From: an uncultured virus (IMG/VR IMGVR_UViG_3300027747_002957)
Lineage: Duplodnaviria > Heunggongvirae > Uroviricota > Caudoviricetes
DNA: 20,000 nt
Reading direction: 5' to 3' (one strand)
Virus record (IMG/VR): IMGVR_UViG_3300027747_002957
In this document: in pieces, positions 1-18,207 of the stretch
How the letters are laid out: every line of letters begins with the position of its first letter
How positions within the stretch are numbered: the stretch's first letter is position 1
The notes under the pieces: model-generated
Told to the model about the DNA's origin: nothing
The model's database searches: none
The model's input: the letters and a program-made list of their open reading frames with translations, nothing else
Made by a program: the position numbers and the translations under genes

Positions 1-621
1 CACAGTTACTTCGACGACGTGGTGGCCAGCTACCACCCCGAGTGGGTCAAGCACGAGCAGTTCATGGCCAATGCCAAGTACTTGGAGACCAGAGTCAACT
101 ACTTGGCCATACGCATGATGATGGCCGAGGACCACTGGGATAGCCAGATGGCGCGTGCTGATGAGATCTTTGATGCCATGGGTAACGTGCACATGGAATA
201 CGTACCCATACTGGCCGAGATGAGCACTGCGGCCCAGCCCTATGACTACAGCGACAAGAACAAGATAGACTGGCTGATGAACAACAACCTGCGCATCAAG
301 CAGACGCTGACCAAGCCCAAGAACAGAGTGGGCAGCACAGCCACCATGGAGCATTGGAGCGACGGCACGGTGCAGCCAGTGAACAGCAACAGGTTGGCAG
401 CAGAGCGCGTCAACTTCTTTGAGGGTTGGCAGTGCGATCTTGGTACCAGCATCAACATAGGCATCAATGGCGACATAACCCTGGGCAGCTGTGGCGTCAG
501 CGGAGTCATAGGCAACATCTCTGGGCAGCTGAACCTGGACAGCCTGCCCGTGACAGTGACCTGCAGCAAGCACCACTGCCACTGCGGCACTGACATCTGC
601 ATCCCCAAGAGGCGCACATGA
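1..621 (+). CDS. Radical SAM family protein, 5'-truncated; C-terminal part with Cys-rich SPASM/Twitch-like auxiliary domain
   Basis: Frame 1 is open from base 1 (HSYFDDVVASYHPEW...). 'VASYHPE' matches 'CLSFHPE' in the radical SAM at 9152. The C-terminus GWQCDLG..INIGINGDI...C...G.IGNI...TCSKHHCHCGTDICIPK aligns with the C-terminus of 9152..10129. The CxxxCxxC motif would lie upstream of the window. Confidence 0.8.
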   Translation, partial: HSYFDDVVASYHPEWVKHEQFMANAKYLETRVNYLAIRMMMAEDHWDSQMARADEIFDAMGNVHMEYVPILAEMSTAAQPYDYSDKNKIDWLMNNNLRIKQTLTKPKNRVGSTATMEHWSDGTVQPVNSNRLAAERVNFFEGWQCDLGTSINIGINGDITLGSCGVSGVIGNISGQLNLDSLPVTVTCSKHHCHCGTDICIPKRRT

Positions 622-1883
622 CCACTGACAGCTTCTGCGTGATGCCATGGCGCAATCTCAACACCACTCCCATGGGCCAGTGCAAGCTCTGCTGCAACAT
701 ACAGGATTTCAAGGTCATACATGAGGTGGGCGGCACTCCCTTGAACTGGGGCACCAACAGCCTTACGCACATCTGGAACGGTGAGCACATGCAGGGCGTG
801 CGGCAGAAGATGCTGCAGGGTGAACAGGTCAGCGACTGTGGCATCTGTTATGGCATCGAAGCCAGCGGGGTAGCTAGCCCACGGCAACTGGCCAATCAAG
901 CACAGCCCATGGATAGATCTCTGCTAGGTAGGATCAGCGACAGCTTGCCTGTGAGTTTTGAGCTGCGGCCCAGCACTCGCTGCAACCTAACCTGCGTCAC
1001 TTGCTGGAGCGGCAGCAGCGACAGGGTGGCTGCACAGAGGCGTGAGCTTTTGGATGATGACAACACAGTGCTACCGCCGTGGTTGGCCAAAGAATGGCAC
1101 AAGGAGCTGCGCATCAACAAATCAGATGGCAGCGAAGAATGGAAAAGCGATGGTGATTACATAAGCAGGTCGCAGAGCCTTGACAACTTCAAACTCATGG
1201 CACCAACCCTGCAGCGTCTGTATATCACAGGCGGCGAGCCAACCATGGATGCCAATATCTATCAGTATCTGGACATACTGCTGGAGGCAGGCAACACTGA
1301 CTGCGAGGTCAGCTTCACCACCAACTGCACCCTGTGGAATCCCAAGCTGATACAGCAGCTGAGCCAGTTCAAGACAGAAGTGCAGATCAGCATAGACGGT
1401 TTTGGTGCGCAGGACGAATTCATACGGCAGGGCACAGTGTGGAGTGAAAAGGACCAAAACTTCCGTCGCTATCTCAGCAGTGGCATGGCACAGAGCATCA
1501 AGATATTCACGGTGGTCAGCGCACTGAACTGCCTCAGCATGCGACCTCTGCTGCGGCACATCAGCTACACGGTACAAGAGATAGGGACCCCCTGCATATG
1601 GTTCCCCATAGTCTTGGATTTTCCGCCATATCTCAGCGTTGAAGCTGTGCCACTGGCAGCTCGGCAGTCTGCTTGGCGCGATCTAAAGCGCAGCATTCCT
1701 CAAGGCCCCTGTGACATGCATCATGGCATCGCGTATGCCCAGCAGGTGGTGACCAACAGGCCCTTTGACAGTGATCTCAGCCTGAGGCTGCAGCAGTGGT
1801 TGGTGTTCAAGCGCACAGCGCATGGCATAGACACTGCTGACATATTACCAGAGCTCACGGAGGCCCTTGTTGCCTGTGCCTGA
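618..1883 (+). CDS. Radical SAM protein with N-terminal Twitch-like domain
   Basis: CNLTCVTC (CxxxCxxC), YITGGEP, FTTN and ISIDG motifs; N-terminal FCVMPW...CKLCC...CGICYGIE; ATGA overlap with the upstream gene. Confidence 0.9.
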   Translation: MTTDSFCVMPWRNLNTTPMGQCKLCCNIQDFKVIHEVGGTPLNWGTNSLTHIWNGEHMQGVRQKMLQGEQVSDCGICYGIEASGVASPRQLANQAQPMDRSLLGRISDSLPVSFELRPSTRCNLTCVTCWSGSSDRVAAQRRELLDDDNTVLPPWLAKEWHKELRINKSDGSEEWKSDGDYISRSQSLDNFKLMAPTLQRLYITGGEPTMDANIYQYLDILLEAGNTDCEVSFTTNCTLWNPKLIQQLSQFKTEVQISIDGFGAQDEFIRQGTVWSEKDQNFRRYLSSGMAQSIKIFTVVSALNCLSMRPLLRHISYTVQEIGTPCIWFPIVLDFPPYLSVEAVPLAARQSAWRDLKRSIPQGPCDMHHGIAYAQQVVTNRPFDSDLSLRLQQWLVFKRTAHGIDTADILPELTEALVACA

Positions 1884-3129
1884 ACATCCCAGCTTCTGCG
1901 TGCTAGCCTACAACAGCCTCAGCCTGGATGGTCCCGGCCGGCCACGTCTATGCTGCAACAACCACGGCCACTGGAAGGACTTCAGCAATCCATTCATCAC
2001 TGACATCACTGAACCCTTGGAAGTGCTCAACAGCCCGCTGCACAAGGCCGTGAGGCAGAGCATCGCTAAGAGTGAGAGACATCCAAGCTGCAGCAAGTGC
2101 TGGCAGATCGAAGACACTGGTGGTGTCAGCTTCAGGCATATCTGGAACGGTGTCTACAGCGATCTGGGATACAGCTGCCAGCCGCGTGCCACGGCCAGCG
2201 ACGGCACGCTGCTGCCAGGCAGTGACATACAGTATCTGGACATAACCTTTGGCAATAAGTGCAACCTAGTGTGCCGCATGTGCAACTGGGCCAACAGCCA
2301 CCTGTGGACCATAGACAACATCAAGCTGGGCAGGCATGACAGCTATGCTGATCAGCGTGCCTCACACCAGCAGTGGTTCGAGGATCCCAGGGCCATGGAG
2401 GTGATACTCAGCACGCTGCCCACGGTCACGCACATCAACTTCCTTGGCGGGGAACCGCTGATCATAAAGCAGCATCACGAGATCCTTGAAGCCTGCGTGG
2501 CGCAGCAAGTGGCACATCGCATCAGCATCAGCTACAACACCAATCTCACGCACATGCCCAGCCAGCTGCTGGAGCTGTGGCAGCAGTTTGGCCACATAAC
2601 CATCAATGTCAGCCTCGAAGCAATCGGCAAGGCCAACGACTACATACGTCAGAACAGCAGCTGGGCAGACATCATGCGTAACCTACGTGCGCTACTGAGC
2701 ATAGCAAAGCACCAAGAGACCATGAAGATCGACATACACACCACGTTCGGTCTATACAACTGTTTCAGTGCTGCTGAGCTGATAACATGGTGCAGGCAAA
2801 GGCCTGGATTGGGTGGGCTGCCATTCGTGAACGTGGTCTATCATCCCAGCTACCAAGACGTGAGGCTGCTGCCAGACAGTGCCAAGCGCACGGTGCGTGA
2901 TCAGATACTAGCCGCGCTGGAGGGCATGCAGCAGCATCAATATCACGCATCCTGGATAGCGGCACTGAACCACATGGACCAAAGCAGTGACTCGGTGTCT
3001 GCTCATCGCAACCCCGGATGGCCCACTGACCTGTGGCTTCAGTTCTGGCATGACGCTGGCGAGATAGATCGGCTCAAGAACAGGGCCATGGCTGATCACT
3101 TACCCCAGCTCTGGGAGCTGCGACCATGA
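1867..3129 (+). CDS. Radical SAM protein with N-terminal Twitch-like domain
   Basis: CNLVCRMC, FLGGEP, YNTN and VSLEAIG motifs; N-terminal FCVLAY...RLCC...CSKCWQIE. The start is ambiguous (TTG 1867/1870 or GTG 1876; GGAGG at 1859-1863). Confidence 0.9.
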   Translation: MLPVPEHPSFCVLAYNSLSLDGPGRPRLCCNNHGHWKDFSNPFITDITEPLEVLNSPLHKAVRQSIAKSERHPSCSKCWQIEDTGGVSFRHIWNGVYSDLGYSCQPRATASDGTLLPGSDIQYLDITFGNKCNLVCRMCNWANSHLWTIDNIKLGRHDSYADQRASHQQWFEDPRAMEVILSTLPTVTHINFLGGEPLIIKQHHEILEACVAQQVAHRISISYNTNLTHMPSQLLELWQQFGHITINVSLEAIGKANDYIRQNSSWADIMRNLRALLSIAKHQETMKIDIHTTFGLYNCFSAAELITWCRQRPGLGGLPFVNVVYHPSYQDVRLLPDSAKRTVRDQILAALEGMQQHQYHASWIAALNHMDQSSDSVSAHRNPGWPTDLWLQFWHDAGEIDRLKNRAMADHLPQLWELRP

Positions 3130-4385
3130 CCGTGCACTGGGTGTTTGACGATCCCACAAGGTTCAGGACCATGACGGCCTGCCCAGTGACCACCCTGGGT
3201 GTGAGAGATCACTTGGTAACTGGTAGGTTTCCCATTGCCAATTTCTTCCATTACTGGCGCAACAACTTTTGGAACCGATCCGACGTGGTATGGCAGCACA
3301 GCAGCGTCGCCGATCGTCCACGCAACTATGCCTACAACATAGGCACGTGGCAGGATGCGCAGTATTGGACCGGTTGGCAGGGCAACCAAGTTGGTTTCGA
3401 CTGCTTTCTCAACCACGTGCCGCCAGAGGTCATGGCCGATGCTCAGCAGGGCCGCGCGCTGTTGGTCATAGACAATCTCAACGAAGGTTTCTATGAACCG
3501 AGGCTCTATGAGTATCTGCATCAGTGCTGTGCAGAGTATGCGCTGCCTCCCAGCTCGCTGTGCTTTCTCACTGGCAATGATCTTGATCACAGAGGCTATG
3601 CTGAATGGTGCGACGGTCTTGGCATCAGGGCTCGCATCACCATCATTGGATTCCCGCACCTGCTGTACATGCAGCAGCTGAACCTACGAAACAGCACGCG
3701 ACTAACCTGGGAAGATCAGATAGCTGCCAAGCGAGACGGCAGGCCAATCAGCCTTTACAACTGCCTCAACAGGGTCAGCAGGCAGCACCGCGAGCTCATG
3801 GTCATGAAGCTGATCGAGTCAGACCTACATCAGGAAGGCCTGGTCAGCCACAACCAGCTATGGTATCATGGCTGGCCAGACTGGGGCGTGCCGGAAGCTG
3901 TGATCAACAAGGCTCAGGCCACGCTGCCACTGATAGTGGATGACGCAGACTTTGGCAACAACAAGGCCATGCACATCAATACCAGCATCTACACCAACAG
4001 CTGGTTCAGCGTGATCAACGAGACCCATGCCTTTGACGAGCCACACAATCTGTTCATCAGCGAAAAGCTGTGGAAACCAATCTGGGCGCTGCAGCCGTTC
4101 ATGGTCTGGGGTCACCAGAACACGCTGGCACTGCTGCGCAGCTGGGGCTTCGAAACCTATGGCTGCCTCTGGGACGAGATCTATGACAGCCAAACCGATC
4201 TAGCCAGGTTGGAGCTGATACTGCAGAACCTGCGCGAAGCACGGTGGCACAGGGACAAGCTGCACTGGTGGATGCGCTGCCGAGAAGTCTGCGAGCACAA
4301 CCAACAGCTGTTCTGCGGCATGGATTGGTTCAACAGCAGCCACCATCAGCAGTTCCTTGCTGCCTATCGTGGACTAAACAGCTGA
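3126..4385 (+). CDS. Putative glycosyltransferase (GT-B-like) of phage type
   Basis: ATGA-coupled 419-aa ORF. The C-terminal 'CLNRVSRQHR...FSVINET...FISEKLWKPIWALQPFMVWG' resembles the E...(I/V)TEK nucleotide-sugar-binding motif of GT10-like enzymes. Function is inferred from motif and context. Confidence 0.55.
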   Translation: MTVHWVFDDPTRFRTMTACPVTTLGVRDHLVTGRFPIANFFHYWRNNFWNRSDVVWQHSSVADRPRNYAYNIGTWQDAQYWTGWQGNQVGFDCFLNHVPPEVMADAQQGRALLVIDNLNEGFYEPRLYEYLHQCCAEYALPPSSLCFLTGNDLDHRGYAEWCDGLGIRARITIIGFPHLLYMQQLNLRNSTRLTWEDQIAAKRDGRPISLYNCLNRVSRQHRELMVMKLIESDLHQEGLVSHNQLWYHGWPDWGVPEAVINKAQATLPLIVDDADFGNNKAMHINTSIYTNSWFSVINETHAFDEPHNLFISEKLWKPIWALQPFMVWGHQNTLALLRSWGFETYGCLWDEIYDSQTDLARLELILQNLREARWHRDKLHWWMRCREVCEHNQQLFCGMDWFNSSHHQQFLAAYRGLNS

Positions 4386-6289
4386 TGAAGAAACTCTATC
4401 TCTCGCAGATCAACAACAGCTTTGGTGGGCAGGCCTTCCTGCCCTATTCAGTGGGCATGCTGTGGAGCTACGCAGCAAGCCAGCCTGACATCGCACACAG
4501 CTATGAGCTGGGCGGCCTGCTGTTCCTTCGCGAACCCTTGGACACTGCGGCTGATCGCATGGTGGACCCAGACGTGCTGGCTCTCAGCTGCTATCTGTGG
4601 AACTGGAACTATAACATGGCACTGGCCAAGCTGGTGAAGCAGAGATATCCCAGCTGCGTGATAGTACTGGGTGGACCAGAAGTGCCCAGCAGTGGTTTTG
4701 ATTCCGAGATCACGGTTGCTGACTATCTGGTGCATGACGAAGGCGAGATCACTTTCGTGGAACTGCTGCGAGTGATCAGAGATGGTGGTGATCCTGCTGG
4801 TGTGCAGGGCATCAGCTATCTGCGAGATGGTGTGGCTCACAAAACAGAATCTCGTGCGCGCCTAGCAGATCTCTCAGTGCTACCAAGCCCTTATCTCAGT
4901 GGGTTGTTCGCTAAGCTGATCCGAGAAAATCCGCAGATAGCTTGGCATGCCAGCCAAGAGACACATAGAGGCTGCCCCTACAGCTGTACCTTCTGCGACT
5001 GGGGATCAGCTGTGTACACCAAGATACGGCAGTTTGACACAGCTCGCTTGGTCAGCGAACTTTCTTGGTTTGGCACCAACCGTATCGATCTGCTCTACAA
5101 CTGCGACGCCAACTATGGAATCTATGCTCGCGATCTGGACATCACTGCTGAGATGGTGAAAACCAAGCAGCAGTGGGGCTATCCTCAGAAGTTCCGTGCC
5201 AGCTATGCCAAGCGCAGCGATCAAAAGGTCTTTGACATAGCCAAGCTGCTGAACGATGCTGGCATGAGCAAGGGTGTGACGCTGAGCATGCAGAGCATGG
5301 ATCCACACACATTGGGGATCATCAAGCGCAAGAACATAGCCATCGAAGACTTCCGACCCCTGGTTGATCGCTATAGGCAGCAGAACATAGCAACCTACAC
5401 AGAACTGATAATAGGCCTGCCGGGCGAGACGCTGCACAGCTATAAACAGGGCATCGAGACACTGTTACAGGGTGGGCAGCACGACAACCTAGTGATCTAC
5501 ACCTGCATGGTGCTGCGCAATTCAGAGATGGCAGATCCCAGACACATGGCTGAGCAGGGCATACGAAAGCAGCGTGTACCTCTGATGGACAATCACAGCA
5601 GCACTCGTCCAGATGAGATACCGGAATACAATGACATAGTGATCGCGACCAGCAGCATGCCTCATGACGATTGGCGAGCTGCCTATAGGATCAGCTGGAT
5701 CGTGCAGGCACTGCATTGCCTTGGTCTCACTCAGTATCTGGCCATGGACTATTGGCGAGTGAACGGCAGCTATACCGAGTTCTATGAGCGCTTGCTGCGA
5801 GCACACCGTGACCAACCCACACTGCTGGGCGCACAGATTGCTAGGATCGATCACACGCTGGATCGCATGCTGGATGGCGCCGAGGATCTGGGCCAGAGCG
5901 ATAGCCGTTTCGGTGACATCAACTGGCCAGTTGAAGAGCTGACATTCCTGCAGCTGCGATCAGACAGCACTCGTTTCTATGCTGAGCTTGTGCCTTTCCT
6001 GCGTGATTGGATGACCGATGATCACATCGCAGACGCAGTGCACTTCCAGCAGCAGTGGATACTGGGACCCGATCACGAGACAGATGAAGCACACAGCTAT
6101 GGCCATGACATACCCAGCATGATCACTGCCGCGCTGCGCTGCACGCCAGGTCCAGTGCTACGGCAACCAGTATCCGTGAGCTTTGAGTCCGCATCCTATC
6201 CCCGCAGCAGCCAAGACTGGGCGCGACAGATAGTTTGGTATGGCAGGAAACAGGTGTTACACAAGAGGAGGATACATGAGATTGCTTGA
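4385..6289 (+). CDS. Cobalamin (B12)-binding radical SAM protein (class B type)
   Basis: N-terminal B12-binding domain (LPYSVGML...ALSCYLWN...VLGGPEV...DEGEITF), RGCPYSCTFCDWG motif and ELIIGLPGET. The true start is at 4385 (TGATG overlap), not 4244. Confidence 0.9.
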   Translation: MKKLYLSQINNSFGGQAFLPYSVGMLWSYAASQPDIAHSYELGGLLFLREPLDTAADRMVDPDVLALSCYLWNWNYNMALAKLVKQRYPSCVIVLGGPEVPSSGFDSEITVADYLVHDEGEITFVELLRVIRDGGDPAGVQGISYLRDGVAHKTESRARLADLSVLPSPYLSGLFAKLIRENPQIAWHASQETHRGCPYSCTFCDWGSAVYTKIRQFDTARLVSELSWFGTNRIDLLYNCDANYGIYARDLDITAEMVKTKQQWGYPQKFRASYAKRSDQKVFDIAKLLNDAGMSKGVTLSMQSMDPHTLGIIKRKNIAIEDFRPLVDRYRQQNIATYTELIIGLPGETLHSYKQGIETLLQGGQHDNLVIYTCMVLRNSEMADPRHMAEQGIRKQRVPLMDNHSSTRPDEIPEYNDIVIATSSMPHDDWRAAYRISWIVQALHCLGLTQYLAMDYWRVNGSYTEFYERLLRAHRDQPTLLGAQIARIDHTLDRMLDGAEDLGQSDSRFGDINWPVEELTFLQLRSDSTRFYAELVPFLRDWMTDDHIADAVHFQQQWILGPDHETDEAHSYGHDIPSMITAALRCTPGPVLRQPVSVSFESASYPRSSQDWARQIVWYGRKQVLHKRRIHEIA

Positions 6290-6386
6290 TTGGCTTTTGT
6301 CCCCATACCGGCGCTGGCGTAGCTGGCGCAGATACCAACAGCGCATGTCTGAGCTGCGCAAGCGCGATCCGTTCATCTACAGATGA
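6276..6386 (+). CDS. Small basic 36-aa protein ending RKRDPFIYR (possibly SxtK/DUF5989-like)
   Basis: MRLLDWLLSPYRRWRSWRRYQQRMSELRKRDPFIYR*. A strong SD (GAGGAGGA) precedes ATG 6276, the stop overlaps the next ATG (ATGA 6383-6386), and the ORF exactly fills the gap. It is missing from the ORF track. Confidence 0.75.
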   Translation: MRLLDWLLSPYRRWRSWRRYQQRMSELRKRDPFIYR

Positions 6387-7195
6387 GCACGGCCAGGCTC
6401 ATAGCATTTGGCGACAGCTGGACCTGGGGCAGCGAGCTGCGAGACCCAAGCATACCAGGCTTGCGCGAGGACTTTGACCATCGAGACAGTGGCTATAGGC
6501 TTGAGCATGTGTGGAGCAGCTGCCTCGGTCGTGCCATTGGCAGAGATGACGTGATAAATCTAGCTTGGCCTGGCTGCAGCAATGACACCATTCTGCGCAG
6601 TCTCACCGAGTGGCTGATCACACAGGGATATCTGCAGGGCCAGGACCCGAGCAGGGATCTAGTAGCCATAGGTTGGACCAGCCCTGAACGCAGAGATTTT
6701 TGGTTCCATGACGTGGATGATCCCAGCTGCGTCGATCGGGGGTGGTTGACCATGTATCCCATGTGGACTCACACCTACAAGCATGCTGCAATCAACAGGT
6801 TCAGCAGAGAATACGTGCGGTATTGGTGGCATGCTGCGGAATACATGCATCGCTATATCAACACCATACATCGTGCTCAGCAGCTGCTAGAGGCCGCAGG
6901 CGTTGAATACTTCATGTTTCAGGCCATATACCACCATCATCAGCAGCTGATCACCGAATGGAATGATCAGCAGTATCAGGTCCAGCACGAGCTGAAGATC
7001 AGCGACGCAGACAGGCAGATATGGCAGCTGATAGACGGTGATCGATTCATGCACAAGGATCAACCTCTGGCCACGTTTCACAATCACATAATCGGAGACC
7101 GTGATCCCAGAGAAGTTCTGCTGATCAGCCATCCCAACGAGCTGGGCCATCGACTGTGGGCTGATCATATCTGTGATTGGTTGACGCAGCGATGA
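6383..7195 (+). CDS. SGNH/GDSL hydrolase-fold protein (esterase or acyltransferase)
   Basis: Block I 'LIAFGDSWTWG', block II 'INLAWPGCSND', block V 'SHPNELGHRLWAD'. Confidence 0.85.
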   Translation: MSTARLIAFGDSWTWGSELRDPSIPGLREDFDHRDSGYRLEHVWSSCLGRAIGRDDVINLAWPGCSNDTILRSLTEWLITQGYLQGQDPSRDLVAIGWTSPERRDFWFHDVDDPSCVDRGWLTMYPMWTHTYKHAAINRFSREYVRYWWHAAEYMHRYINTIHRAQQLLEAAGVEYFMFQAIYHHHQQLITEWNDQQYQVQHELKISDADRQIWQLIDGDRFMHKDQPLATFHNHIIGDRDPREVLLISHPNELGHRLWADHICDWLTQR

Positions 7196-7938
7196 GAGCA
7201 GCTGTTTTTCTCAGAGGCCACAGGCGTACCTGGGATCAGACCCGCGACGCCATGACCCAGACCATGTCAGCCATCTGTGACCAAACCCACTACTATATCT
7301 GCCAATGGCGCACAGACAGCTGCAGAGATTTCGATGCTTACAGAGACATGCAGATCATGCATGCGGAGCTAACAGGTCCCGAGCATTGGGATATCGCAGA
7401 CAACATCAACAGCGCTACTGCGCCTAGCTGGCAATCGCTGCGTTGTTATAAAGCTATGAAGGCCACTGGCATTGACTATGACATGATCATCGATACCAGA
7501 TCAGATATCTGGATATCGCCCACTGAGATCAAGATTAGCCTGCCTCGGCAGGGAGAGATCTACACCACCAAGCTGGAGAATCCCTGGTATGACAGTGTGA
7601 TGCCTGGCATGGAGGATCACTTGTTTGCTGCCGAACCAACCACCATGGGTATATGGTGCCAAAGGCACCTGAGACCACGCAGTGACATCAGCTTCAATCA
7701 CTGCATACTGTGGCAATACTGCGTGGATCTAGGGCTTGAACCAAGGCAGATACCGTGGTTATTGTCACGGTTCGTGCGTCCAAACGTGGGCCATGCACCG
7801 CAGCATGACAGCGGGTTGTTGAGTACCCTGCAGCATGAATGGACAGGCCTTTCGCAGCAAGCAAGGCTGGCCCACTGCTTGGCTATGGGCATCGATCCCA
7901 GAGAATATGCGGCAGAATATCACATAGGACCATGTTAA
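7192..7938 (+). CDS. Hypothetical protein, putative glycosyltransferase-like
   Basis: ATGA-coupled start at 7192. 'MRAAVFLRGHRRT' and 'YDMIIDTRSDI' resemble the A.x.x.x.G.x.x.R ... YD.x.x.x.x.x.R.x.D pattern seen in putative phage glycosyltransferases. Confidence 0.45.
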   Translation: MRAAVFLRGHRRTWDQTRDAMTQTMSAICDQTHYYICQWRTDSCRDFDAYRDMQIMHAELTGPEHWDIADNINSATAPSWQSLRCYKAMKATGIDYDMIIDTRSDIWISPTEIKISLPRQGEIYTTKLENPWYDSVMPGMEDHLFAAEPTTMGIWCQRHLRPRSDISFNHCILWQYCVDLGLEPRQIPWLLSRFVRPNVGHAPQHDSGLLSTLQHEWTGLSQQARLAHCLAMGIDPREYAAEYHIGPC

Positions 7939-7941
7939 CAC

Positions 7942-7971
7942 TTGCTGAACTGGCCGCGCGAACCGCATAAT
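7942..7971 (+). promoter_or_regulatory. Possible internal sigma70-like promoter upstream of the UDP-sugar dehydrogenase
   Basis: TTGCTG (7942-7947), 18 nt, CATAAT (7966-7971), in the only real intergenic gap of the operon; GGAGG SD follows. Confidence 0.35.
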
Positions 7972-7994
7972 TATCTCATAGCCGGAGGACAGAC

Positions 7995-9155
7995 ATGCGC
8001 GTGGGTATGATAGGTTTGGGCAAGCTGGGCTTGCCTGTGGCAGAGGCCATGGCAAGAACACATGATGTCATGGGCACTGACATACGACCAGTGACCACTG
8101 AACGTGTCAAGCTGGGCACCTTGGCCGAAGTGGCTGCTCACAGCGAGATACTGTTCATAGCAGTGCCAACACCGCACGACCCGGCCTACGATGGCAGTGC
8201 TCCCACCAGCCACTTGCCCAGCAAGGATTTTGATTACAGCACCGTGATCGCTGTGCTGCAGCAGCTAGAACACTGTGACATCGAAAACACAACAGTGGTG
8301 CTGATCAGCACAGTGCTGCCAGGCACGCTACGCAGGCAGCTGGCTAGGCATATCAGCAAGACCAACTTGGTCTACAATCCCTATCTCATAGCCATGGGCA
8401 CCGTGGCACACGACATGGTCCATCCAGAGATGATACTGATCGGCACGGCCACTGGCACAGAAGATGCTGCCGTGGAACAGCTCAGGGCATTCTATGCGCC
8501 CATGATGCAGAACGATCCCAGGGTGATCACAGGCACCTGGGAAGAGATGGAAGCCATCAAGATCTTCTACAACACCTTCATCTCAGCCAAGATTGGCCTG
8601 GTCAACATGATACAGGACGTGGCCGAGAGAGTGGGTAACATGGACAGCGACTTGGTTGCCCGTGCGCTGGCAGACAGCACGCAGAGGATCATGGGTCCGG
8701 CCTACATGAAACCAGGCATGGGCGACGGTGGACCCTGCCATCCCAGAGACAACATAGCACTGCGCTGGTTGGCCCAGCGCTTGGACCTGGGCTATGATCT
8801 GTTTGACGGCATCATGCGTGCTCGCGAAGTGCAGGCCGACAACCTAGCACGCGAGCTGGTCAGCCACAACCTACCCGTGGTCATACTGGGCAAGAGCTAC
8901 AAGCAGGGCGTGGATCACACAGACGGCAGCTATAGCCTGCTGGTTGGACACTGCTGCGAGTCCAGAGGTGCTGTGGTCAGCTATGATGCGATCAGCCTGG
9001 CCCCAGCTGTGTATCTGCTGGCACATCAGCGCTATTACACAACAGAGATGGAACAGATTGCTCAGGGCAGCGTGGTGGTGGATCCATGGCGCAGTACCAC
9101 AGTGCCAGATGGCATAGAGCTGATACCCTATGGTAACACGAGAAGCATCACATGA
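7995..9155 (+). CDS. ugd: UDP-glucose/GDP-mannose dehydrogenase family protein
   Basis: Rossmann 'GMIGLGKLG', 'FIAVPTP', 'STVLPGT', 'E.IKIFYNTF', and catalytic Cys in 'GDGGPCHPRD'. Confidence 0.9.
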   Translation: MRVGMIGLGKLGLPVAEAMARTHDVMGTDIRPVTTERVKLGTLAEVAAHSEILFIAVPTPHDPAYDGSAPTSHLPSKDFDYSTVIAVLQQLEHCDIENTTVVLISTVLPGTLRRQLARHISKTNLVYNPYLIAMGTVAHDMVHPEMILIGTATGTEDAAVEQLRAFYAPMMQNDPRVITGTWEEMEAIKIFYNTFISAKIGLVNMIQDVAERVGNMDSDLVARALADSTQRIMGPAYMKPGMGDGGPCHPRDNIALRWLAQRLDLGYDLFDGIMRAREVQADNLARELVSHNLPVVILGKSYKQGVDHTDGSYSLLVGHCCESRGAVVSYDAISLAPAVYLLAHQRYYTTEMEQIAQGSVVVDPWRSTTVPDGIELIPYGNTRSIT

Positions 9156-10129
9156 GCACAGACATACTGAACGGCTACACTCGCCTGGAACATGCCAACA
9201 CTGAGTTGGCCAAGATAATCAACGTAAACTGGTGCATGGGCAACACCTGTAACTTTGAGTGCAGCTACTGCCCCAAGAGCCTGCATGATGGCAGCCATGG
9301 TTGGTATGACTATGACAGCGTGCTGCAGTTCTGTGAACGCATCATAGATCACTACAAGAGCACCATATACTTTGAGTTCACCGGCGGCGAAGTCACGCTG
9401 TGGAAGCACTTCCCAGATCTCTGCCAGTGGCTCAAGGCTCGAGGCTGCAGGGTAGGTTTCATCAGCAACAGTTCTCGCACCCTGCGCTGGTGGGAAGACA
9501 TCTTGGATCACGTGGACCACGTGTGCCTCAGCTTCCATCCCGAAGCAGGTGACAAGTCGCACTTCCTGCAGGTGGCAGCCATGACCAGCCAGCGCATACG
9601 CACGCACGTTAACCTCATGATGCTGCCGGATCGCTTTGATGAGCTCTATGACTTTGCGGTGCGGCTCACGGAGATTACCAACATCAGCATGGCGCTGCAG
9701 CCACTGCTGATCAACTTTGGTGAGGAAGTCTATCCCTATGCACCAGAGCAGCAGGAACGCATCGACAGGCAGTATGAGCTGGTCAGCAAGCACATCACTC
9801 ATGATCGGCAGTTTGAAAACTACCGAGGTGCCATGGCCATGGTACGTCCAGATGGCAAGCGAGTGGTCATGGCCCCGCAGAAGTTCATCAGCCAGCAGGT
9901 CAACAGCTGGCAGGGCTGGCACTGCTGGGCAGGTCTAGAAAACATCATCGTGGACATGGACGGCAAGATATACCGAGGATGGTGCCGCGAGGGTGGCAGC
10001 ATAGGTCATGTGCTTGACCAAGATCTGAACCTACCTCTAGCTCCGGTGCTGTGCACCAAGAACCGCTGCCACTGCAACTTTGACATAATGTGCACCAAGG
10101 AGAAGATCAATGGACTTCACGCCGGGTAA
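9152..10129 (+). CDS. Radical SAM protein with C-terminal Cys-rich auxiliary domain
   Basis: CNFECSYC and FTGGEVT; C-terminal GWHCWAG...C...CTKNRCHCNFDIMCTK; ATGA overlap. Confidence 0.9.
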   Translation: MSTDILNGYTRLEHANTELAKIINVNWCMGNTCNFECSYCPKSLHDGSHGWYDYDSVLQFCERIIDHYKSTIYFEFTGGEVTLWKHFPDLCQWLKARGCRVGFISNSSRTLRWWEDILDHVDHVCLSFHPEAGDKSHFLQVAAMTSQRIRTHVNLMMLPDRFDELYDFAVRLTEITNISMALQPLLINFGEEVYPYAPEQQERIDRQYELVSKHITHDRQFENYRGAMAMVRPDGKRVVMAPQKFISQQVNSWQGWHCWAGLENIIVDMDGKIYRGWCREGGSIGHVLDQDLNLPLAPVLCTKNRCHCNFDIMCTKEKINGLHAG

Positions 10130-11132
10130 ACCACTGCGAGCCTATGCTGCTGACGGCACGTGGCGCGACTTCAGCACTGACGAGATAGTGGGACAGAGGC
10201 TCAACTACTATAAAGGTTGGCACTGTGGCGTAGGTGTGGAGAACCTGTTCATCGACTCAGACGGCATGGTGCATGGTGCTAACTGCAGGGTAGGTGGCAA
10301 GCTTGGCAACGTTTTTGACGATTTTGCCATACCCACACACTGGTCTACCTGTGACCTACCAACTTGCTCGTGCGGCAGCGATCTTTTCATTCCCAAGAGC
10401 CGCACTCCCGATTTGGCCAAGCTGCTGCGCAGGACGCAGGACTTGGCAACCGAAGTAGGCAAGCGAGACTACCAGCTGCGAGACATAGCCGCGCTGGAGC
10501 GCACCCATGCCAGCAGCGTGAAGCAGGTGTTCTGGGAGATAGGCAGGCGCTGCAACTTTGACTGCAGCTACTGTTCTCCTAAGATACACAATAACTTCGA
10601 AGCTCACAAGAGCTTGGACGAGCTGATGTCAGCTACCCAGAGGATACAGGACAAGTTCATAGGACAAGGGCGCTGCAACTTCATAATCAGCGGCGGAGAG
10701 CCAACAGCTAACTCGGCTTTCCTGGACTGGTGCAGATACATCAACAGCTGCGGCTATCATCTCAGCATGCACAGCAACGGTAGCAGGCGACCGGAATACT
10801 ACAGCGAGCTGATCAACTACGGTGATCTCAATCTCAGCGCTCACTATGAGTTCTGGAACCAAGATAGGTTCCTTGAAGTGGTAAATGCTGTCACACAGCA
10901 GAAGTTCAGCAAGCACAACCGAGGCGTGGGACATCTCGAGATAAAGCTGATGATGAAACCCGGAACCACTGACGACACGCTGGCATTCGAAGATAGGCTC
11001 AAGGCCATACCAAACTTTACCAACTACTGCACCTGGGCCATAGTGCCAGTGCGAGACAATGAAGATCGCCATCTGTTAGATGGCTACAGCAACAGCGACT
11101 TTGAGCTGTTTGGAGACCGTAATGGCAAGTAA
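10110..11132 (+). CDS. Radical SAM protein with the auxiliary Cys-rich domain moved to the N-terminus
   Basis: AAGGAG SD; N-terminal GWHCGVG...NC...TCDLPTCSCGSDLFIPK, followed by core CNFDCSYC, ISGGEPT and HSNG. Confidence 0.9.
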   Translation: MDFTPGKPLRAYAADGTWRDFSTDEIVGQRLNYYKGWHCGVGVENLFIDSDGMVHGANCRVGGKLGNVFDDFAIPTHWSTCDLPTCSCGSDLFIPKSRTPDLAKLLRRTQDLATEVGKRDYQLRDIAALERTHASSVKQVFWEIGRRCNFDCSYCSPKIHNNFEAHKSLDELMSATQRIQDKFIGQGRCNFIISGGEPTANSAFLDWCRYINSCGYHLSMHSNGSRRPEYYSELINYGDLNLSAHYEFWNQDRFLEVVNAVTQQKFSKHNRGVGHLEIKLMMKPGTTDDTLAFEDRLKAIPNFTNYCTWAIVPVRDNEDRHLLDGYSNSDFELFGDRNGK

Positions 11133-12492
11133 CATACGCAACACAGCCTGCAGCTTTGCCTGGGACTATCCCAACATCATGTTCAGTGGCAGCAAGATCA
11201 AGAACTGCTGCCGCGGACCTTGGTCCAAGCCATCACATGCTGACATGGACAGGCAGGGCGTGGATCTGTTCAGCAACCACGAACCCATGCTGGAGGTGAA
11301 GTCAGCGCTGCTGCGAGGCCAGAAACACAGGTTCTGCAGCAAGTGCTATGAGGCCGAGCAGGCCGGCGTGGGCAGCCCGCGCAATGGTCTGGGTGGGCTG
11401 GCCAGCTACGTGGAAAGGACCAACTACTTCCCAGGCAAGTCAGCCACGGAGATAGAACAGCTGCTGCTGTCACTGACACCGCAGCAGCAGGCAGAGATAG
11501 CACGCCTGCGATCGCCCAACCTCATCGAGATATCGCTGGACAGCACCTGCGATCTCAAGTGCATGTACTGCAACCTCTACTACAGCACCCAGTGGGCTTC
11601 AGAAGCGCTGCAGCATGGCGACGTCACGCCAGACGTGCTGCGCCGCGAGCTGCCGGACACTGATCCGCGGTTCGAGCAGCTGTTCTGGGAATGGTTCGAG
11701 AGCTATGCCTATGAGCAGGCAGAATGCATCAACTTCATAGGTGGAGAGCCCTTGATCATTGACCGCTACTACCAGTACATGGAGAGGATCACTGCCAAGT
11801 ATCTCAGCGCGGGGCGCACGCGGCCACTGTACATGTCAGCAGTGACCAATCTCAACACGCCTCCTCGCTACATGGATCGCTGGCTGGACTGCATCGGCAA
11901 GCTGTTGGACTGCAGCAGCCAGACCCGCATGGTGATCAAGATCAGCCAAGAGAGCCTGGGCGCACGCGCAGAGTTCATACGCACCGGCCTCAGCTGGACG
12001 CGCTTCGAGTCAAACTTCAATCGCCTGCTGCGTTTCAAGCAGGAGCATGCTGAAGCATGGCGCATCAGGATCGACATCATTGCTAGCCACAATGCGCTGT
12101 CGGTCAGCGATTCACCTGCGTTCTTTGCCTGGGTGGCCGATCTGGTTGATGCGCATAGCACGGAGATAGGCATCAACCCACAGCAGATACAGTATCCTCA
12201 GTGGTTAAACGTGTCAGTGCTGCCTGCCAGCTACGGCAGCTATCTGCAGCGCAGCGCCGATCTGCTGCGATCACGCCGAAGGCACCAGATCGACGATGTG
12301 CACAGGGACTGGCTGCCCTACGCTGATTGGCTTGACGGGCTGGCCAAGAGCATCAGAGATCCACACAAGCCGCGCGAGCACCAGCAGGCTTTCGTGCGAG
12401 AGCTGGACAAGCTGTGCCATCGGCGTGGTCTGGACTTTGCTGCCACCTTCCCTGAGATGATGGAATTCTATCAGACATGCAAGGCCCTATGA
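11122..12492 (+). CDS. Radical SAM protein with N-terminal Twitch-like domain
   Basis: Start ATG 11122 with GGAG SD; TACSFAW...NCC...CSKCYEAE; core CDLKCMYC, FIGGEP, VTN and AEFIRTG. Confidence 0.9.
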   Translation: MASNIRNTACSFAWDYPNIMFSGSKIKNCCRGPWSKPSHADMDRQGVDLFSNHEPMLEVKSALLRGQKHRFCSKCYEAEQAGVGSPRNGLGGLASYVERTNYFPGKSATEIEQLLLSLTPQQQAEIARLRSPNLIEISLDSTCDLKCMYCNLYYSTQWASEALQHGDVTPDVLRRELPDTDPRFEQLFWEWFESYAYEQAECINFIGGEPLIIDRYYQYMERITAKYLSAGRTRPLYMSAVTNLNTPPRYMDRWLDCIGKLLDCSSQTRMVIKISQESLGARAEFIRTGLSWTRFESNFNRLLRFKQEHAEAWRIRIDIIASHNALSVSDSPAFFAWVADLVDAHSTEIGINPQQIQYPQWLNVSVLPASYGSYLQRSADLLRSRRRHQIDDVHRDWLPYADWLDGLAKSIRDPHKPREHQQAFVRELDKLCHRRGLDFAATFPEMMEFYQTCKAL

Positions 12493-13964
12493 TAACCTGG
12501 GGCATATCAGCTGGTGGACATGACGCGGCCATCGCTGTGCTCAAGCAGGGCGAGATAGCATTTGCCGCACATGCGGAGCGCTATAGCAGGCACAAGAACG
12601 ATCCGCATATCTGTTGGCCGCTCATACGCCAAGCATTCGCACACGGTGAACCAGACCAGATCATATGGCATGAAAAACCATGGTTGCTGCACACTCGTGC
12701 CATATACGCTGGACAATGGTCAGAAGCATTTAGCGCCAGTCCGCGCCAGCAGCTGCGTGGTAACTTCTTGGAGCACACACCTATCCGCACAGTAAGCCAT
12801 CATCACAGCCATGCTGCTGGCGGATACTACACCAGTGGTTTCAGGGACGCTGCTATCGTTGTGGTAGATGCTGTGGGTGAATGGGACACTCTCAGCATCT
12901 GGGAAGGCCACTGGGACCAGCTGCGCAAGCGTGCCAGCATCAGATATCCCAACAGCCTCGGACTGTTCTACTCAGCCATGACACAGCGCTGTGGGTTCAA
13001 ACCCAACGAAGAGGAATACATCATGATGGGCCTAGCGGCGCTGGGTGATCCTCAGAGGCTAGAGCAGCAGATCTGTGATGACATAATAGAAGTCACCACT
13101 GACTGGCCCTTCTTCAGATTGCGACGCAATCTGCACAGAGGTTGCCAATGGTGGTTGCCCGGAGAAAACAATACAGCAGACATAGCCGCTGCGGCGCAGA
13201 ACATATTCACCAAGATCATGATCAGTATCTGTGCACATGCTCGCGACCTAGTGGGCAGCAACAATCTAGTGTTCAGCGGGGGCAGTGCCCTGAACTGCGT
13301 GACCAACAGTGCGTTGACCCACAGCAATATCTGGGACCGCATCTGGATCATGCCCAATCCCGGCGATGCTGGTAACAGCATTGGTGCTGCTCTAGCATAC
13401 CACGGTGAGCACATCAAGTGGCAGGGTCCCTATCTTGGACATGACATACCAGGTGACTATCCTGTGCATAGGACGCTGGCAGTGCTGGGACTGGGACAGA
13501 TAGTGGGTGTGGCCAATGGTCGCGCAGAGTTTGGACCAAGAGCGCTGGGCAATCGCAGCCTCTTTGGTGATCCCAGAGATCCTGACATCAAGGACAAGAT
13601 GAACACGGCCAAGCAGCGCGAAGCATTCAGACCGTTCGCTCCTGTGATACTGGAAGAACTGGCTGGCAGCTATTTTGACGTGCTGGGCCAGGATCACAGC
13701 TACATGCAGTACACTGTGCGCTGCAAGGACCCTGACATCTATCCTGGTATAGTGCATGTGGATGGTACCAGCAGGCTACAGACGGTGGGAAGAGCGCAGC
13801 ATCCAAGTCTCTGGGAGCTGTTGGTACGTTGGTACAACAGCACAGGATGTCCCATGCTGGTCAACACTAGCCTCAACATCAAGGGGCAGCCCTTGGTTAA
13901 CACCGAAGCTGATGCTGAAGCTTTCACGGCTGCTTATGGAATCCCTGTGTTCTGCAGGGACTAG
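12489..13964 (+). CDS. O-carbamoyltransferase, NodU/CmcH/TobZ family
   Basis: HDAA, AERYSRHKND, HHHSHA, VVDAVGE, GRAEFGPRALGNRS, RPFAP, HVDGTSRLQTV and NTSLN motifs; ATGA-coupled start at 12489. Confidence 0.95.
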   Translation: MITWGISAGGHDAAIAVLKQGEIAFAAHAERYSRHKNDPHICWPLIRQAFAHGEPDQIIWHEKPWLLHTRAIYAGQWSEAFSASPRQQLRGNFLEHTPIRTVSHHHSHAAGGYYTSGFRDAAIVVVDAVGEWDTLSIWEGHWDQLRKRASIRYPNSLGLFYSAMTQRCGFKPNEEEYIMMGLAALGDPQRLEQQICDDIIEVTTDWPFFRLRRNLHRGCQWWLPGENNTADIAAAAQNIFTKIMISICAHARDLVGSNNLVFSGGSALNCVTNSALTHSNIWDRIWIMPNPGDAGNSIGAALAYHGEHIKWQGPYLGHDIPGDYPVHRTLAVLGLGQIVGVANGRAEFGPRALGNRSLFGDPRDPDIKDKMNTAKQREAFRPFAPVILEELAGSYFDVLGQDHSYMQYTVRCKDPDIYPGIVHVDGTSRLQTVGRAQHPSLWELLVRWYNSTGCPMLVNTSLNIKGQPLVNTEADAEAFTAAYGIPVFCRD

Positions 13965-14695
13965 CCCATCTTGGCTATCTTTTCCTGGCCTCTGGTCCAG
14001 GCTGTGATGCCCAGTATTGCGCCAAAGGCCAGATGTATCAATCCACCGTTGGCCAGCGTGAGGCTCTGCCACTGTGTGTAGGTTATGGCGGTGGCACCAA
14101 GATTCTTGAGAAACACGGGCATTGCCATGGTCAGCATGGGTGCTATCACGAAATCAAAGGCACAGATCAGCATGTAGAGCCAACCCATGGCAGGACGCCA
14201 ATAGCTCTTCATCCAATGTTCGCCTTCCTTTTGGCTATTGCGCTCTTCTTCTTCTCTGAGCTGTTGTTCACGGAAGTCCTCTTTGCGGATCTCCATGTAC
14301 ATGCTATGCTTGGCACGGTCGCTGTCCAGCTGGAACTTGGCTTCTTCCAAAGACATCTTGCGTGATACGATGTCACTGTTGATGTCGCTGATGGCAGAAA
14401 GGTCAGCACCTGTGCTGCTCATGGGAGGAGCAGGTGTTGCGCTGTAGCTGTTGCTGGGTGTCATGGTTATCGTGGTCGAACCGTTGGGTTCGGTGGTCAC
14501 GCTGGCAGAGGCGGCCGCAGTTGTTTGGTTAGTGTCTGATGGCACCGTGGTTGCTGCTGCGGGCTGCTGAGCTGCTGGTTGGCTGGCTGGCACATGCAGC
14601 GAATCATCATTGGCACTGTCTATGACAACACCATCCACTGCCTTGGGAGGTGGTGCAGCATCTGCGTTTTGTTTAGGATCCAGCCTCTTGATCAT
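13961..14695 (-). CDS. Putative holin (3TM/GTA-holin-like) with long low-complexity N-terminal extension
   Basis: C-terminal 'WRPAMGWLYM..FDFVIAP...GGLIHLAFGAILGITAWTRGQEK' with hydrophobic segments, typical of the WRP...LG...R..EK 3TM holin family; lies directly downstream of the spanin pair. Confidence 0.7.
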   Translation of the reverse strand: MIKRLDPKQNADAAPPPKAVDGVVIDSANDDSLHVPASQPAAQQPAAATTVPSDTNQTTAAASASVTTEPNGSTTITMTPSNSYSATPAPPMSSTGADLSAISDINSDIVSRKMSLEEAKFQLDSDRAKHSMYMEIRKEDFREQQLREEEERNSQKEGEHWMKSYWRPAMGWLYMLICAFDFVIAPMLTMAMPVFLKNLGATAITYTQWQSLTLANGGLIHLAFGAILGITAWTRGQEKIAKMG

Positions 14696-14696
14696 G

Positions 14697-14726
14697 AAAT
14701 ACCCCTGGTTCGTCAGGGGTATTTAT
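14697..14726 (-). promoter_or_regulatory. RBS-sequestering hairpin overlapping a TAAATA late promoter, upstream of the holin
   Basis: Perfect 11-bp inverted repeat AAATACCCCTG (14697-14707) / CAGGGGTATTT (14714-14724) with a 6-nt loop. On the minus strand the 3' arm carries AGGGG just before the ATG, and ATAAATA (14726-14720) overlaps the 5' arm. Confidence 0.7.
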
Positions 14727-14735
14727 TTTGTCAGG

Positions 14736-18142: not shown

Positions 18143-18163
18143 GTAAAATCCTCAGTTTCACTA

Positions 18164-18192
18164 AAGCTAGCATGATTAGAATGATCTGTCAA
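18164..18192 (-). promoter_or_regulatory. Sigma70-type (early) promoter for the nuclease-methyltransferase operon
   Basis: On the minus strand: TTGACA (18192-18187), 17 nt, TAGCTT (18169-18164), with a TGn extended -10. Confidence 0.7.
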
Positions 18193-18196
18193 CACC

Positions 18197-18203
18197 ATAA
18201 ATA
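18197..18203 (+). promoter_or_regulatory. T4-like late promoter motif (ATAAATA) upstream of the RyR-domain gene
   Basis: ATAAATA at 18197-18203, 4 nt before ATG 18208, with no SD. Confidence 0.6.
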
Positions 18204-18207
18204 TCGC

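Follow-up and report, generated by a model that had tools for sequence, protein, structure and literature searches.

The 20,000-nt window analysed here corresponds to bases 17029-37028 of a 60,769-bp virus record (IMG/VR IMGVR_UViG_3300027747_002957) and carries, at positions 1-13964, thirteen plus-strand genes of an operon of radical S-adenosylmethionine (SAM), sugar-related and carbamoyltransferase genes. This count, obtained from the open reading frame (ORF) listing and from start-codon and overlap analysis, replaces the 14 same-strand genes of the original prediction. The tight packing described there was confirmed by the same analysis, with overlaps of 1-20 nt at all junctions but one, and the single 56-nt gap was located. 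The seven radical SAM genes with six visible CxxxCxxC motifs were found in the same numbers inside the window, and the uridine diphosphate (UDP)-sugar dehydrogenase, the SGNH protein, the carbamoyltransferase (CarbT) and the micro-peptide are present according to domain matches or ORF analysis. The operon begins 4.5 kb upstream of the window and extends over contig coordinates 12517-30992 (~18.5 kb). It comprises 16 genes in all, with ten CxxxCxxC motifs across nine radical SAM genes. Upstream of the window lie a B12-binding radical SAM gene, an N-twitch radical SAM gene and the part of a radical SAM fusion gene that encodes its N-terminal 540 residues.

A sigma-70-type promoter (TTTACA-17-TATAAT, 11/12 match) is located at contig positions 12490-12518, at the 5' end of the operon, and adjoins a phage sigma-70 gene transcribed divergently from it. 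Promoter-like sites within the operon do not score above 9/12 (12 sites, against 9.0 +/- 3.3 in shuffles), and the 56-nt gap contains none better than 9/12. The divergent gene (L002:10724-12193, minus strand) encodes a full-length RpoD-like sigma-70 factor with regions 1.2, 2, 3 and 4 and the non-essential region, and keeps 68-90% identity in the relatives described below. The best terminator-like site of the scanned region, a 12-pair hairpin followed by a T-run, lies at 14697-14724 (plus strand), between the holin and spanin genes. Two metatranscriptome runs hold contigs at least 99% identical to the window, over 30/30 and 22/30 bins. These were not counted as evidence of expression, since coverage does not differ between the strands or among the genes and carried-over DNA may be the source.

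Features of the operon and of the adjoining lysis cassette, in window coordinates unless stated otherwise
Feature	Position	Strand	Remarks
N-twitch + STM4011-like radical SAM fusion, C-terminal 206 aa	1-621	+	whole protein 748-780 aa, contig 15307/15403-17649; NF033640 427.9 bits
NTwiC, N-twitch radical SAM, 421 aa	618-1883	+	NF033640 242 bits; SPASM 7-77, Radical_SAM 118-292
NTwiD, N-twitch radical SAM, 420 aa	1867-3129	+	
unk419, predicted GT-B fold glycosyltransferase-like, 419 aa	3126-4385	+	fold comparison
B12-binding radical SAM, KedN5-like putative C-methyltransferase, 634 aa	4385-6289	+	CPYSCTFC; ATG 4385 start
Basic 36-aa micro-peptide, end R-D-P-F-I-Y-R	6276-6386	+	AGGAGG Shine-Dalgarno 5 nt upstream; ATGA overlap with next gene
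SGNH-like DUF6071, putative O-acyl esterase/transferase, 270 aa	6383-7195	+	PF19547 E 1e-12, 48.7 bits (cut-off 27)
unk248, 248 aa	7192-7938	+	no family matched, E 10 included
Sole intergenic gap of the operon in the window	7939-7994	.	56 nt; GGAGG upstream of ATG at 7995
NDP-sugar 6-dehydrogenase family, 386 aa	7995-9155	+	PF03721, PF00984 above cut-offs
Small STM4011-like radical SAM, 325 aa	9152-10129	+	NF038073 E 8.5e-15, 54.8 bits, below cut-off 200
Radical SAM with N-terminal Cys-rich domain, 340 aa	10110-11132	+	Radical_SAM E 1e-12; NF038073 C-terminal part matches residues 35-88
NTwiE, N-twitch radical SAM, 456-470 aa	11122-12492 (start 11080 or 11122)	+	NF033640 199.4 bits; CDLKCMYC
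TobZ/NodU-type O-carbamoyltransferase (CarbT), 491 aa	12489-13964	+	both Pfam domains; phrog_1601 E 1e-95
Lysis cassette	13961-15525	-	holin 13961-14695 (PF11351, phrog_3427); Rz-like spanins 14736-15113, 15103-15525 (phrog_812, phrog_739)

Five genes of the operon pass the 170-bit cut-off of NF033640 (N_Twi_rSAM), with 303.2, 427.9, 242.0, 294.0 and 199.4 bits. NF033640 is a curated NCBIfam model for twitch domain-containing radical SAM proteins and has no assigned reaction; paper searches for it returned nothing specific and no described reaction. Membership thus names the fold and the clusters, not the function. In these N-twitch proteins, Pfam matches and cysteine maps place a Cys-rich twitch/SPASM-like domain N-terminal to the radical SAM core, and C29, C75, C78, C132, C136 and C139 are invariant among 26 aligned sequences. 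NTwiC has four N-terminal cysteines and the motif CNLTCVTC at residue 122. A sixth member lies on the contig outside the operon (L003:2831-3973, 239.2 bits), and a genome-wide scan found six places over the cut-off in the contig itself (G000) and 16 in G003, a 518,643-bp relative, in several clusters. Fold searches with an N-twitch model gave Z scores from 13.4 to 11.2 across anSME, SkfB, BlsE, viperin, DesII and MoaA and did not separate peptide from sugar substrates; BlsE gave the best root-mean-square deviation (3.7 A, 18% identity). Sequence searches of the PDB yielded nothing useful for NTwiD, and tblastn of NTwiD against cultured phages returned distant matches only (28% identity or less). 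Homologues bear generic names (MoaA, AslB, 'organic radical activating enzyme'), on which we did not rely.

The fusion protein at the left edge of the window contains a second radical SAM stretch (residues 462-610), two CxxxCxxC motifs and a C-terminal 6-Cys cluster. It is fused in this lineage only; in G003 and in another relative, G002, the two parts are separate genes with another radical SAM gene between them. The small radical SAM protein at 9152-10129 has the motif CNFECSYC at residue 33 and a C-terminal 6-Cys cluster. Its neighbour at 10110-11132 has cysteines at 39, 59, 81, 86 and 88 and CNFDCSYC at 148. The same Cys-rich pattern is C-terminal in the first protein and N-terminal in the second, apparently a domain permutation akin to the N-terminal twitch of NF033640. 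There are two B12-binding radical SAM proteins in the operon, one of them KedN5-like, and both fall under subfamily cut-offs. The KedN5-like protein, whose start was chosen for its 1-nt overlap with the preceding stop, scores 256.5 bits against NF033712 (cut-off 700) and 31.3 bits against Radical_SAM (cut-off 29.5), and its B12-binding match, at 29.5 bits, is just below the cut-off of 32.1.

Two glycosyltransferase-like proteins had been announced for the cluster, and one of them stands. The predicted structure of unk419 (predicted local distance difference test 93.5) is a two-Rossmann-domain GT-B fold, and all Foldseek matches listed for it are GT-B proteins; unk419 is thus predicted to be a GT-B fold glycosyltransferase-like protein. 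It belongs to a conserved family of 51 clusters, and it had no Pfam match even at E 10 and none in NCBIfam or PHROGs, while a PDB profile search gave nothing relevant. A second paralogue of unk419, 24% identical, is present in both large relatives (L008:16863-18098 and L012:4509-5741, both plus strand) and missing from this window; it is on the opposite strand and directly adjoins the carbamoyltransferase. For the other protein, unk248, the glycosyltransferase-like label is unsupported by the Pfam, PDB sequence or ESM Atlas comparisons. No meaningful PDB sequence match was found for it. In the ESM Atlas it lies next to viral hypothetical proteins and DUF7796, and Sulfotransfer_2 or PRK domains also occur in some of its larger structural neighbours.

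The nucleoside diphosphate (NDP)-sugar dehydrogenase matches phrog_9148, 'UDP-glucose dehydrogenase', at E 3e-89. It reaches 154.9 bits against TIGR03026, whose cut-off is 189.8, and Pfam recognised its N-terminal NAD domain and its central domain but not the C-terminal UDP-binding domain. The SGNH-like protein has, besides DUF6071, a weak Lipase_GDSL match (E 8e-5), and no PDB sequence match was found for it.

The viral nature of the contig, part of the original prediction, was confirmed by its holin, spanins and collagen-like tail fibre and by a terminase in a complete relative. The contig, an IMG/VR virus record, also encodes many proteins matched by PHROGs only; no capsid or terminase gene was recognised on it. 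The lysis cassette reported beside the operon is indeed there, as a holin and two Rz-like spanins, and these neighbours recur in G002 and G003. A search with NTwiD retrieved, besides a 33.9-kb contig that is nearly identical, two relatives with the same synteny, 157,923 bp and 518,643 bp long. Altogether the cluster is syntenic in four other IMG/VR contigs and is therefore more than a chance assembly of genes. G003 has direct terminal repeats, a CheckV completeness of 100% and a Terminase_6N match. It shares with the contig the order sigma-70, radical SAM operon, carbamoyltransferase, holin-spanin, heme oxygenase-bilin reductase and ligase, at 54-72% protein identity. Because this order is common to the contig and to a complete, terminase-bearing relative of that size, the window comes from a phage lineage of the ~0.5-Mb class. 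Freshwater and lake runs of 16 studies contain all or part of the stretch, and the window as a whole had no megablast match among 50,697 phage records.

Gene-neighbourhood conservation was then examined beyond these close relatives, and the module proved to be co-conserved across many phage contigs, not scattered. A scan for the GT-B family in viral sequences confirmed at least 481 relatives, of which 77 loci were kept. An NTwiA homologue was found in 66/77 of these loci, mostly at 52-63% identity and directly adjoining the GT-B gene. The dehydrogenase occurs in 30/77 (about 50-55% identity), B12-binding radical SAM proteins in 17/77, STM4011-like radical SAM proteins in 12/77 and CarbT in 12/77 by blastp (13 by tblastn). 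Pfam annotation of five GT-B loci revealed 4,6-dehydratase/epimerases, a DegT aminotransferase, GT7, GDSL proteins, DUF6734, DUF5672 and a 2-oxoglutarate oxygenase. In cellular genomes, 286 N-twitch relatives were found, the best 80 mostly from Bdellovibrionota; the search used a single pattern, which may bias the taxa returned, and the connection of Bdellovibrionota with the host is retained as a lead only. These cellular relatives form tandem arrays of up to nine radical SAM genes, next to GT2, PMT_2, GT28/EryCIII-like, NDP-hexose 2,3-dehydratase, DegT, epimerase, sulfotransferase and UDP-sugar dehydrogenase genes. Two Bdellovibrio loci carry, beside N-twitch radical SAM genes, a dehydrogenase (50-51% identity) and a GT-B protein (31-34%), and six cellular N-twitch loci contain CarbT. 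Among cultured phages, CarbT is accompanied by heptose-pathway genes and a tail fibre in S-CAM1, by glycosyltransferases in XacN1, and by three 'MoaA-like' radical SAM genes, a sugar aminotransferase and an epimerase in Pelagibacter phage Mosig. Since the viral, cellular and cultured-phage neighbours are nucleotide-sugar and glycosyltransferase genes, we read the operon as one of nucleotide-sugar tailoring followed by glycosyl transfer.

The acceptor of such a sugar might be sought at the host surface, where a precursor of an envelope glycan (O-antigen, capsule or S-layer) would be remodelled during infection and superinfection blocked. O-chain modification has been proposed for islands with UDP-glucose 6-dehydrogenase, glycosyltransferases and radical SAM cassettes (PMC7029224), and the cellular counterparts described above adjoin the membrane glycosyltransferases GT2 and PMT_2. 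However, a hydropathy scan of the operon proteins detected one marginal transmembrane-like stretch only (residues 50-68 of the upstream B12-binding radical SAM protein), and no flippase, polymerase, priming transferase or lipid-carrier priming enzyme was seen on the contig, a weak argument as the contig is itself a fragment. The cost of 18.5 kb for exclusion would also not be obviously economical in a lytic giant phage. We consider a host-envelope target unlikely.

CarbT matches phrog_1601 over its whole length and contains both Carbam_trans_N and Carbam_trans_C (141.8 and 167.1 bits, cut-offs 24 and 27); the E values of the two Pfam matches are 3e-49 and 5e-41. Its relatives in the PDB are NovN (6e-58), GdmN and TobZ. 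The HHxSH and YrdC-like motifs are invariant in 13 homologues and align with those of NovN, GdmN and a further solved carbamoyltransferase (7xb6); TobZ also matched CarbT. The His-rich motif presumably forms the metal site of a Kae1-like domain, and the GPRALGNRS and HVDGTSR-type motifs presumably belong to the YrdC-like domain. With 147.9 bits against the NodU equivalog NF041651 (cut-off 1000), CarbT is not NodU itself. TobZ, NovN, GdmN, NodU and the phage carbamoyltransferase acting on 5-hydroxymethylcytosine (5hmC; PMC8670742) have the same Kae1-like and YrdC-like architecture and motifs, and the same ATP/carbamoyl-phosphate chemistry is expected. CarbT differs from the solved relatives, which are 570-700 aa long, by its length of ~490 aa, and from known carbamoyltransferases by a dedicated, translationally coupled peptide partner of 32-42 aa.

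The closest characterised relatives of several operon proteins are antibiotic tailoring enzymes (TobZ, NovN, GdmN, the KedN5 family, AprD4 and BlsE). A free small molecule, that is, a pseudo-oligosaccharide or nucleoside-type metabolite made by an aminoglycoside-like logic and acting on the host or on competitors, could be proposed on this basis. These similarities are at family level only, below subfamily cut-offs, and neither the operon nor the contig yielded a scaffold-forming enzyme (cyclitol synthase, nonribosomal peptide synthetase or polyketide synthase), an aminotransferase, a resistance gene or an exporter, which makes such a product very improbable.

The 36-aa micro-peptide, a minor item in the original prediction, is the most distinctive conserved element of the operon. 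Near its C-terminus is the sequence D-P-F-x-Y, in which D, P, F and Y are invariant in 16 aligned copies while being encoded by 2, 4, 2 and 2 different codons, respectively, in sequences that were not picked by a DNA motif. Because synonymous codons vary at invariant residues, selection acts on the amino acid sequence of the peptide, not on the DNA. When 8,000 candidates were scored in a profile search, at least 6,492 clusters matched at E <= 0.01; the matches listed, 120 in number, are named only 'hypothetical protein' and have no Pfam domain. An exhaustive HMMER search gave 528 representatives at E <= 0.001, and among the 150 matches listed nearly all are 30-45 aa long and match at the C-terminus. 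Text searches of the literature found no paper describing the peptide or containing its motif. The database relatives P0421, P0324, P0365 and P0406 extend beyond the conserved end, and the residue that follows it is Q (…D-P-F-I-Y-K-Q…). This could be explained by phages in which TAG encodes glutamine, or by the use of such a code in gene calling.

By tblastn and motif scans the peptide was also found in the relatives and in other GT-B loci. All 13 CarbT-bearing loci among the 77 have it (nine by the strict pattern, four by tblastn or a relaxed pattern). When 80 viral loci were seeded solely on the DNA motif for the peptide C-terminus, CarbT was found within 4 kb in 75. In 50/75 of these the CarbT start lies 27 nt or less from the peptide stop, with a 4-nt overlap in 29, the borders being those given by tblastn. 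In the same 80 loci an N-twitch radical SAM gene was present within 4 kb in 24, the GT-B protein in 14 and SGNH/DUF6071 homologues in 10. The Ralstonia jumbo phage RsoM2USA contains an unannotated copy of the peptide between genes 201 and 200, an adjoining CarbT (49% identical) and an NTwiA homologue (35%). It was the sole record returned by tblastn of NTwiA against cultured phages, and the neighbouring genes are all annotated as hypothetical. Its peptide was recognised by motif only, as tblastn with a consensus-like peptide against cultured phages gave no match at E 0.1, and the motif was not found beside the CarbT genes of S-CAM1, P-SSM2, XacN1 or Pelagibacter phage Mosig. In this window the peptide and CarbT are 6 kb apart within one operon, and they are also kilobases apart in G002 and G003. 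A role as a cis-acting leader or arrest peptide for CarbT is less likely, since the peptide is downstream of CarbT in three loci, and is further weakened by the kilobases that separate the two genes in these three genomes, although they share an operon. Candidate roles are those of a substrate or scaffold, of a small subunit or adaptor, or of a regulator.

The genomic position of the peptide-CarbT pair bears on the possibility that the target is DNA, in which case the GT-B protein, CarbT and radical SAM enzymes would decorate hydroxymethylated phage bases and the basic peptide would tether CarbT to nucleic acid. In 5/7 Pfam-scanned loci a Toprim primase and a DnaB-like helicase flank the pair on its two sides; the peptide is strongly basic, and T4 DNA glucosyltransferases are among the GT-B fold matches of unk419. 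One phage carbamoyltransferase is reported to turn the 5hmC of DNA, RNA and nucleotides into 5-carbamoyloxymethylcytosine (PMC8670742). However, the same source limits the pairing of CarbT with thymidylate synthase to modified contigs, the CarbT genes of unmodified contigs being flanked by glycosyltransferases and other genes, and gives position 177 of thymidylate synthase as the specificity residue, with Asp in the deoxycytidine monophosphate (dCMP) type (PMC8670742). The sole thymidylate synthase homologue of G003 has Asn in its PFNIASY motif and is not of the dCMP type. We take this motif to denote the deoxyuridine monophosphate type, and no homologue was found on the contig itself or on G002, both of them fragments. 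Moreover, the relatives of the operon contain classical nucleotide-sugar enzymes, and the replication-module hot spots of P-SSM2 also carry unrelated auxiliary genes. Modification of DNA is accordingly rather unlikely in our view. A canonical-looking thymidylate synthase gene at L011:8607-9452 (G003 458607-459452) was noted ~1 kb from another N-twitch radical SAM pair.

The peptide itself could be the acceptor. It would then be neither a bystander nor a mere subunit of CarbT but a ribosomal scaffold, whose D-P-F-I-Y-K/R end would be carbamoylated (e.g. on the hydroxyl of its Tyr), glycosylated and edited by the radical SAM enzymes into a product resembling a cofactor or a peptide made by the ribosome and modified after its translation (RiPP). 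O-carbamoylation of the penultimate tyrosine would come first, a sequence of events that we hold to be improbable. There are precedents for its elements: mycofactocin involves a C-terminal Tyr, a radical SAM-SPASM enzyme and a glycosyltransferase, pyrroloquinoline quinone is a further peptide-derived analogue, and HypF-HypE carbamoylate the C-terminus of a protein. The peptide family is translated, with selection at the amino acid level, its C-terminus is near-invariant, and it is tightly coupled to CarbT in the loci counted above. Twitch/SPASM radical SAM proteins are typical peptide maturases, and anSME, SkfB and CteB are among the best fold matches. However, the radical SAM and GT-B genes are independent of the peptide: 61/77 GT-B-seeded loci are without both the peptide and CarbT, while NTwiA is present in 66/77. 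In RiPP clusters the precursor co-varies with its radical SAM maturase; here the peptide tracks CarbT (75/80) and not the radical SAM genes (24/80). The peptide also has no Cys, the operon has no protease or exporter, and the coupling would be accounted for just as well if the peptide were a small subunit or adaptor of CarbT. We therefore regard a peptide-derived product as quite unlikely.

The reading that we favour, if tentatively, is that the window contains the greater part of a late-type operon of an uncultured freshwater giant phage, for a soluble pathway in which nucleotide sugars are edited and used to glycosylate an intracellular acceptor. The likeliest acceptor would be a protein of the virion, for example a tail fibre. 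Its genes would be co-expressed from the one sigma-70-like promoter through translational coupling, a step visible in the sequence. The NDP-sugar dehydrogenase would convert host nucleotide sugars to a uronic acid sugar nucleotide, and the GT-B protein would move the sugar to the acceptor inside the infected cell. Five N-twitch and two or three small STM4011-like radical SAM enzymes, each with a SAM cluster and a Cys-rich auxiliary cluster, would each take hydrogen from a different unactivated sugar carbon, the outcomes being oxidation, epimerisation, deoxygenation or decarboxylation, as known from BtrN, DesII, AprD4 and BlsE. The two B12-binding radical SAM enzymes would carry out C-methylation, the SGNH/DUF6071 protein would add or remove an acyl group, and CarbT with its dedicated 36-aa peptide would O-carbamoylate a hydroxyl from ATP and carbamoyl phosphate. 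Electrons for the radical SAM clusters may be supplied by a ferredoxin encoded on the same contig. The coordinated pathway to a heavily decorated sugar that had originally been predicted is thus supported in part: the viral contig, the co-conserved module and the sugar-gene neighbours make it the best reading, whereas its chemical steps (oxidation, methylation, carbamoylation and acylation) are putative assignments from family or fold.

Several observations weigh against glycosylation of a virion protein by edited nucleotide sugars. A stretch of 7.5 kb with genes for a subtilase, a YkuD protein and the sigma factor separates the operon from the tail-fibre-like gene upstream; because of this distance and these genes, the genomic context for a virion target is weak. 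The best structural matches of unk419 include T4 DNA glucosyltransferases, tied with fucosyltransferases, and the peptide-CarbT pair is often flanked by primase and helicase genes, without sugar genes in the vicinity. The nearest folds of the N-twitch proteins are likewise tied between peptide maturases (anSME, SkfB, CteB, SuiB) and small-molecule enzymes (BlsE, viperin, MoaA, DesII). Finally, the KedN5-like protein and the dehydrogenase are under the curated NCBIfam cut-offs, and there is no biochemical precedent for any step within these exact families, NF033640 being without a reaction.

Other genes of the contig were also inspected. Its auxiliary genes encode a ferredoxin, heme oxygenase, bilin reductase, ligase, UvdE and ornithine decarboxylase. 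The ferredoxin gene (L002:1050-1394, contig 1050-1394, minus strand), upstream of the window, encodes a 114-aa 2x[4Fe-4S] protein with DUF3470. As the contig carries 11 radical SAM domains, a role as their dedicated electron donor is plausible. The heme oxygenase gene (window 18597-19295, plus strand) overlaps that of a ferredoxin-dependent bilin reductase (19246-19905, plus strand). The pair resembles the auxiliary pair of cyanophages and marine phages and has counterparts of 54% and 62% identity in the 518-kb relative. A cyanophage origin, suggested by these two genes, was considered but not adopted. A 223-aa protein encoded at window positions 18112-18783 (plus strand) has an RyR domain (PF02026, E 6.5e-15). 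A 1,791-aa protein (L004:2279-7654, plus strand) that has phrog_727 and ParB-N-like stretches may be part of the virion or be injected.

Virus-encoded glycosylation of particle proteins occurs in chloroviruses, in mimivirus fibrils and in some mycobacteriophages. The present system is alike in that a large virus has its own soluble nucleotide-sugar and glycosyltransferase machinery, which in the present phage may serve the same purpose. We know of no radical SAM arrays in these systems. The radical SAM enzymes of antibiotic sugar tailoring (BtrN, DesII, AprD4, BlsE; GenK/KedN5) are expected to resemble those of the operon in their SAM-derived radical chemistry on unactivated sugar carbons. They have an auxiliary Fe-S cluster in the twitch domain, and BlsE and DesII are among the fold matches. 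In contrast to these enzymes, the twitch-like domain is N-terminal in the phage proteins and C-terminal in the antibiotic enzymes, no subfamily cut-off is reached, and the phage operon contains arrays of paralogues in a virus.

Literature searches found no characterised pathway of this kind. The original claim that none is known with so many viral radical SAM enzymes is nevertheless to be qualified, as similar clusters had already been mentioned, without being characterised in either paper: 12 radical SAM genes in the genome of a T4-like environmental virus (PMC5332604), and glycosyltransferase-rich 'host recognition clusters' with radical SAM cassettes in pelagimyophages (PMC7029224). The islands of aquatic T4-like myophages (pelagimyophages and cyanomyophages) are alike in being large and variable, with glycosyltransferases, UDP-glucose 6-dehydrogenase and radical SAM cassettes, and a glycan role has been proposed for them. 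They differ in being located in the structural module, between VrlC and gp14 and with tail fibres, whereas this operon is flanked by the sigma-70 gene on one side and by the lysis cassette on the other. The word 'carbamoyltransferase', the N-twitch family and the partner peptide were not found in the accessible text of that paper, and the radical SAM share is far higher here, with ten domains in 16 genes (PMC7029224). Phage glycan-gene islands are therefore known; what is new is the question of the chemistry of the N-twitch radical SAM array, together with the peptide-CarbT pair.

Radical SAM reactions are chemically difficult, and ten such domains in ~18.5 kb point to an unusually complex product. 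NF033640 gains consistent genomic partners in the GT-B protein, the NDP-sugar dehydrogenase and CarbT, as well as cellular counterparts, and RsoM2USA is a cultured phage that carries an N-twitch homologue. The peptide-CarbT pair is very widespread in view of the number of peptide clusters recovered, yet unannotated. Depending on its role, the micro-peptide would represent either a new way to target a carbamoyltransferase or a new peptide-derived product. Were it a scaffold, this would be the first virus-encoded glyco- or carbamoyl-RiPP or peptide-derived cofactor, of a family present in thousands of environmental phages. If instead the edited sugar decorates the virion, as we tentatively favour, the pathway would bear on the host range of giant phages and on their evasion of immunity and defence.

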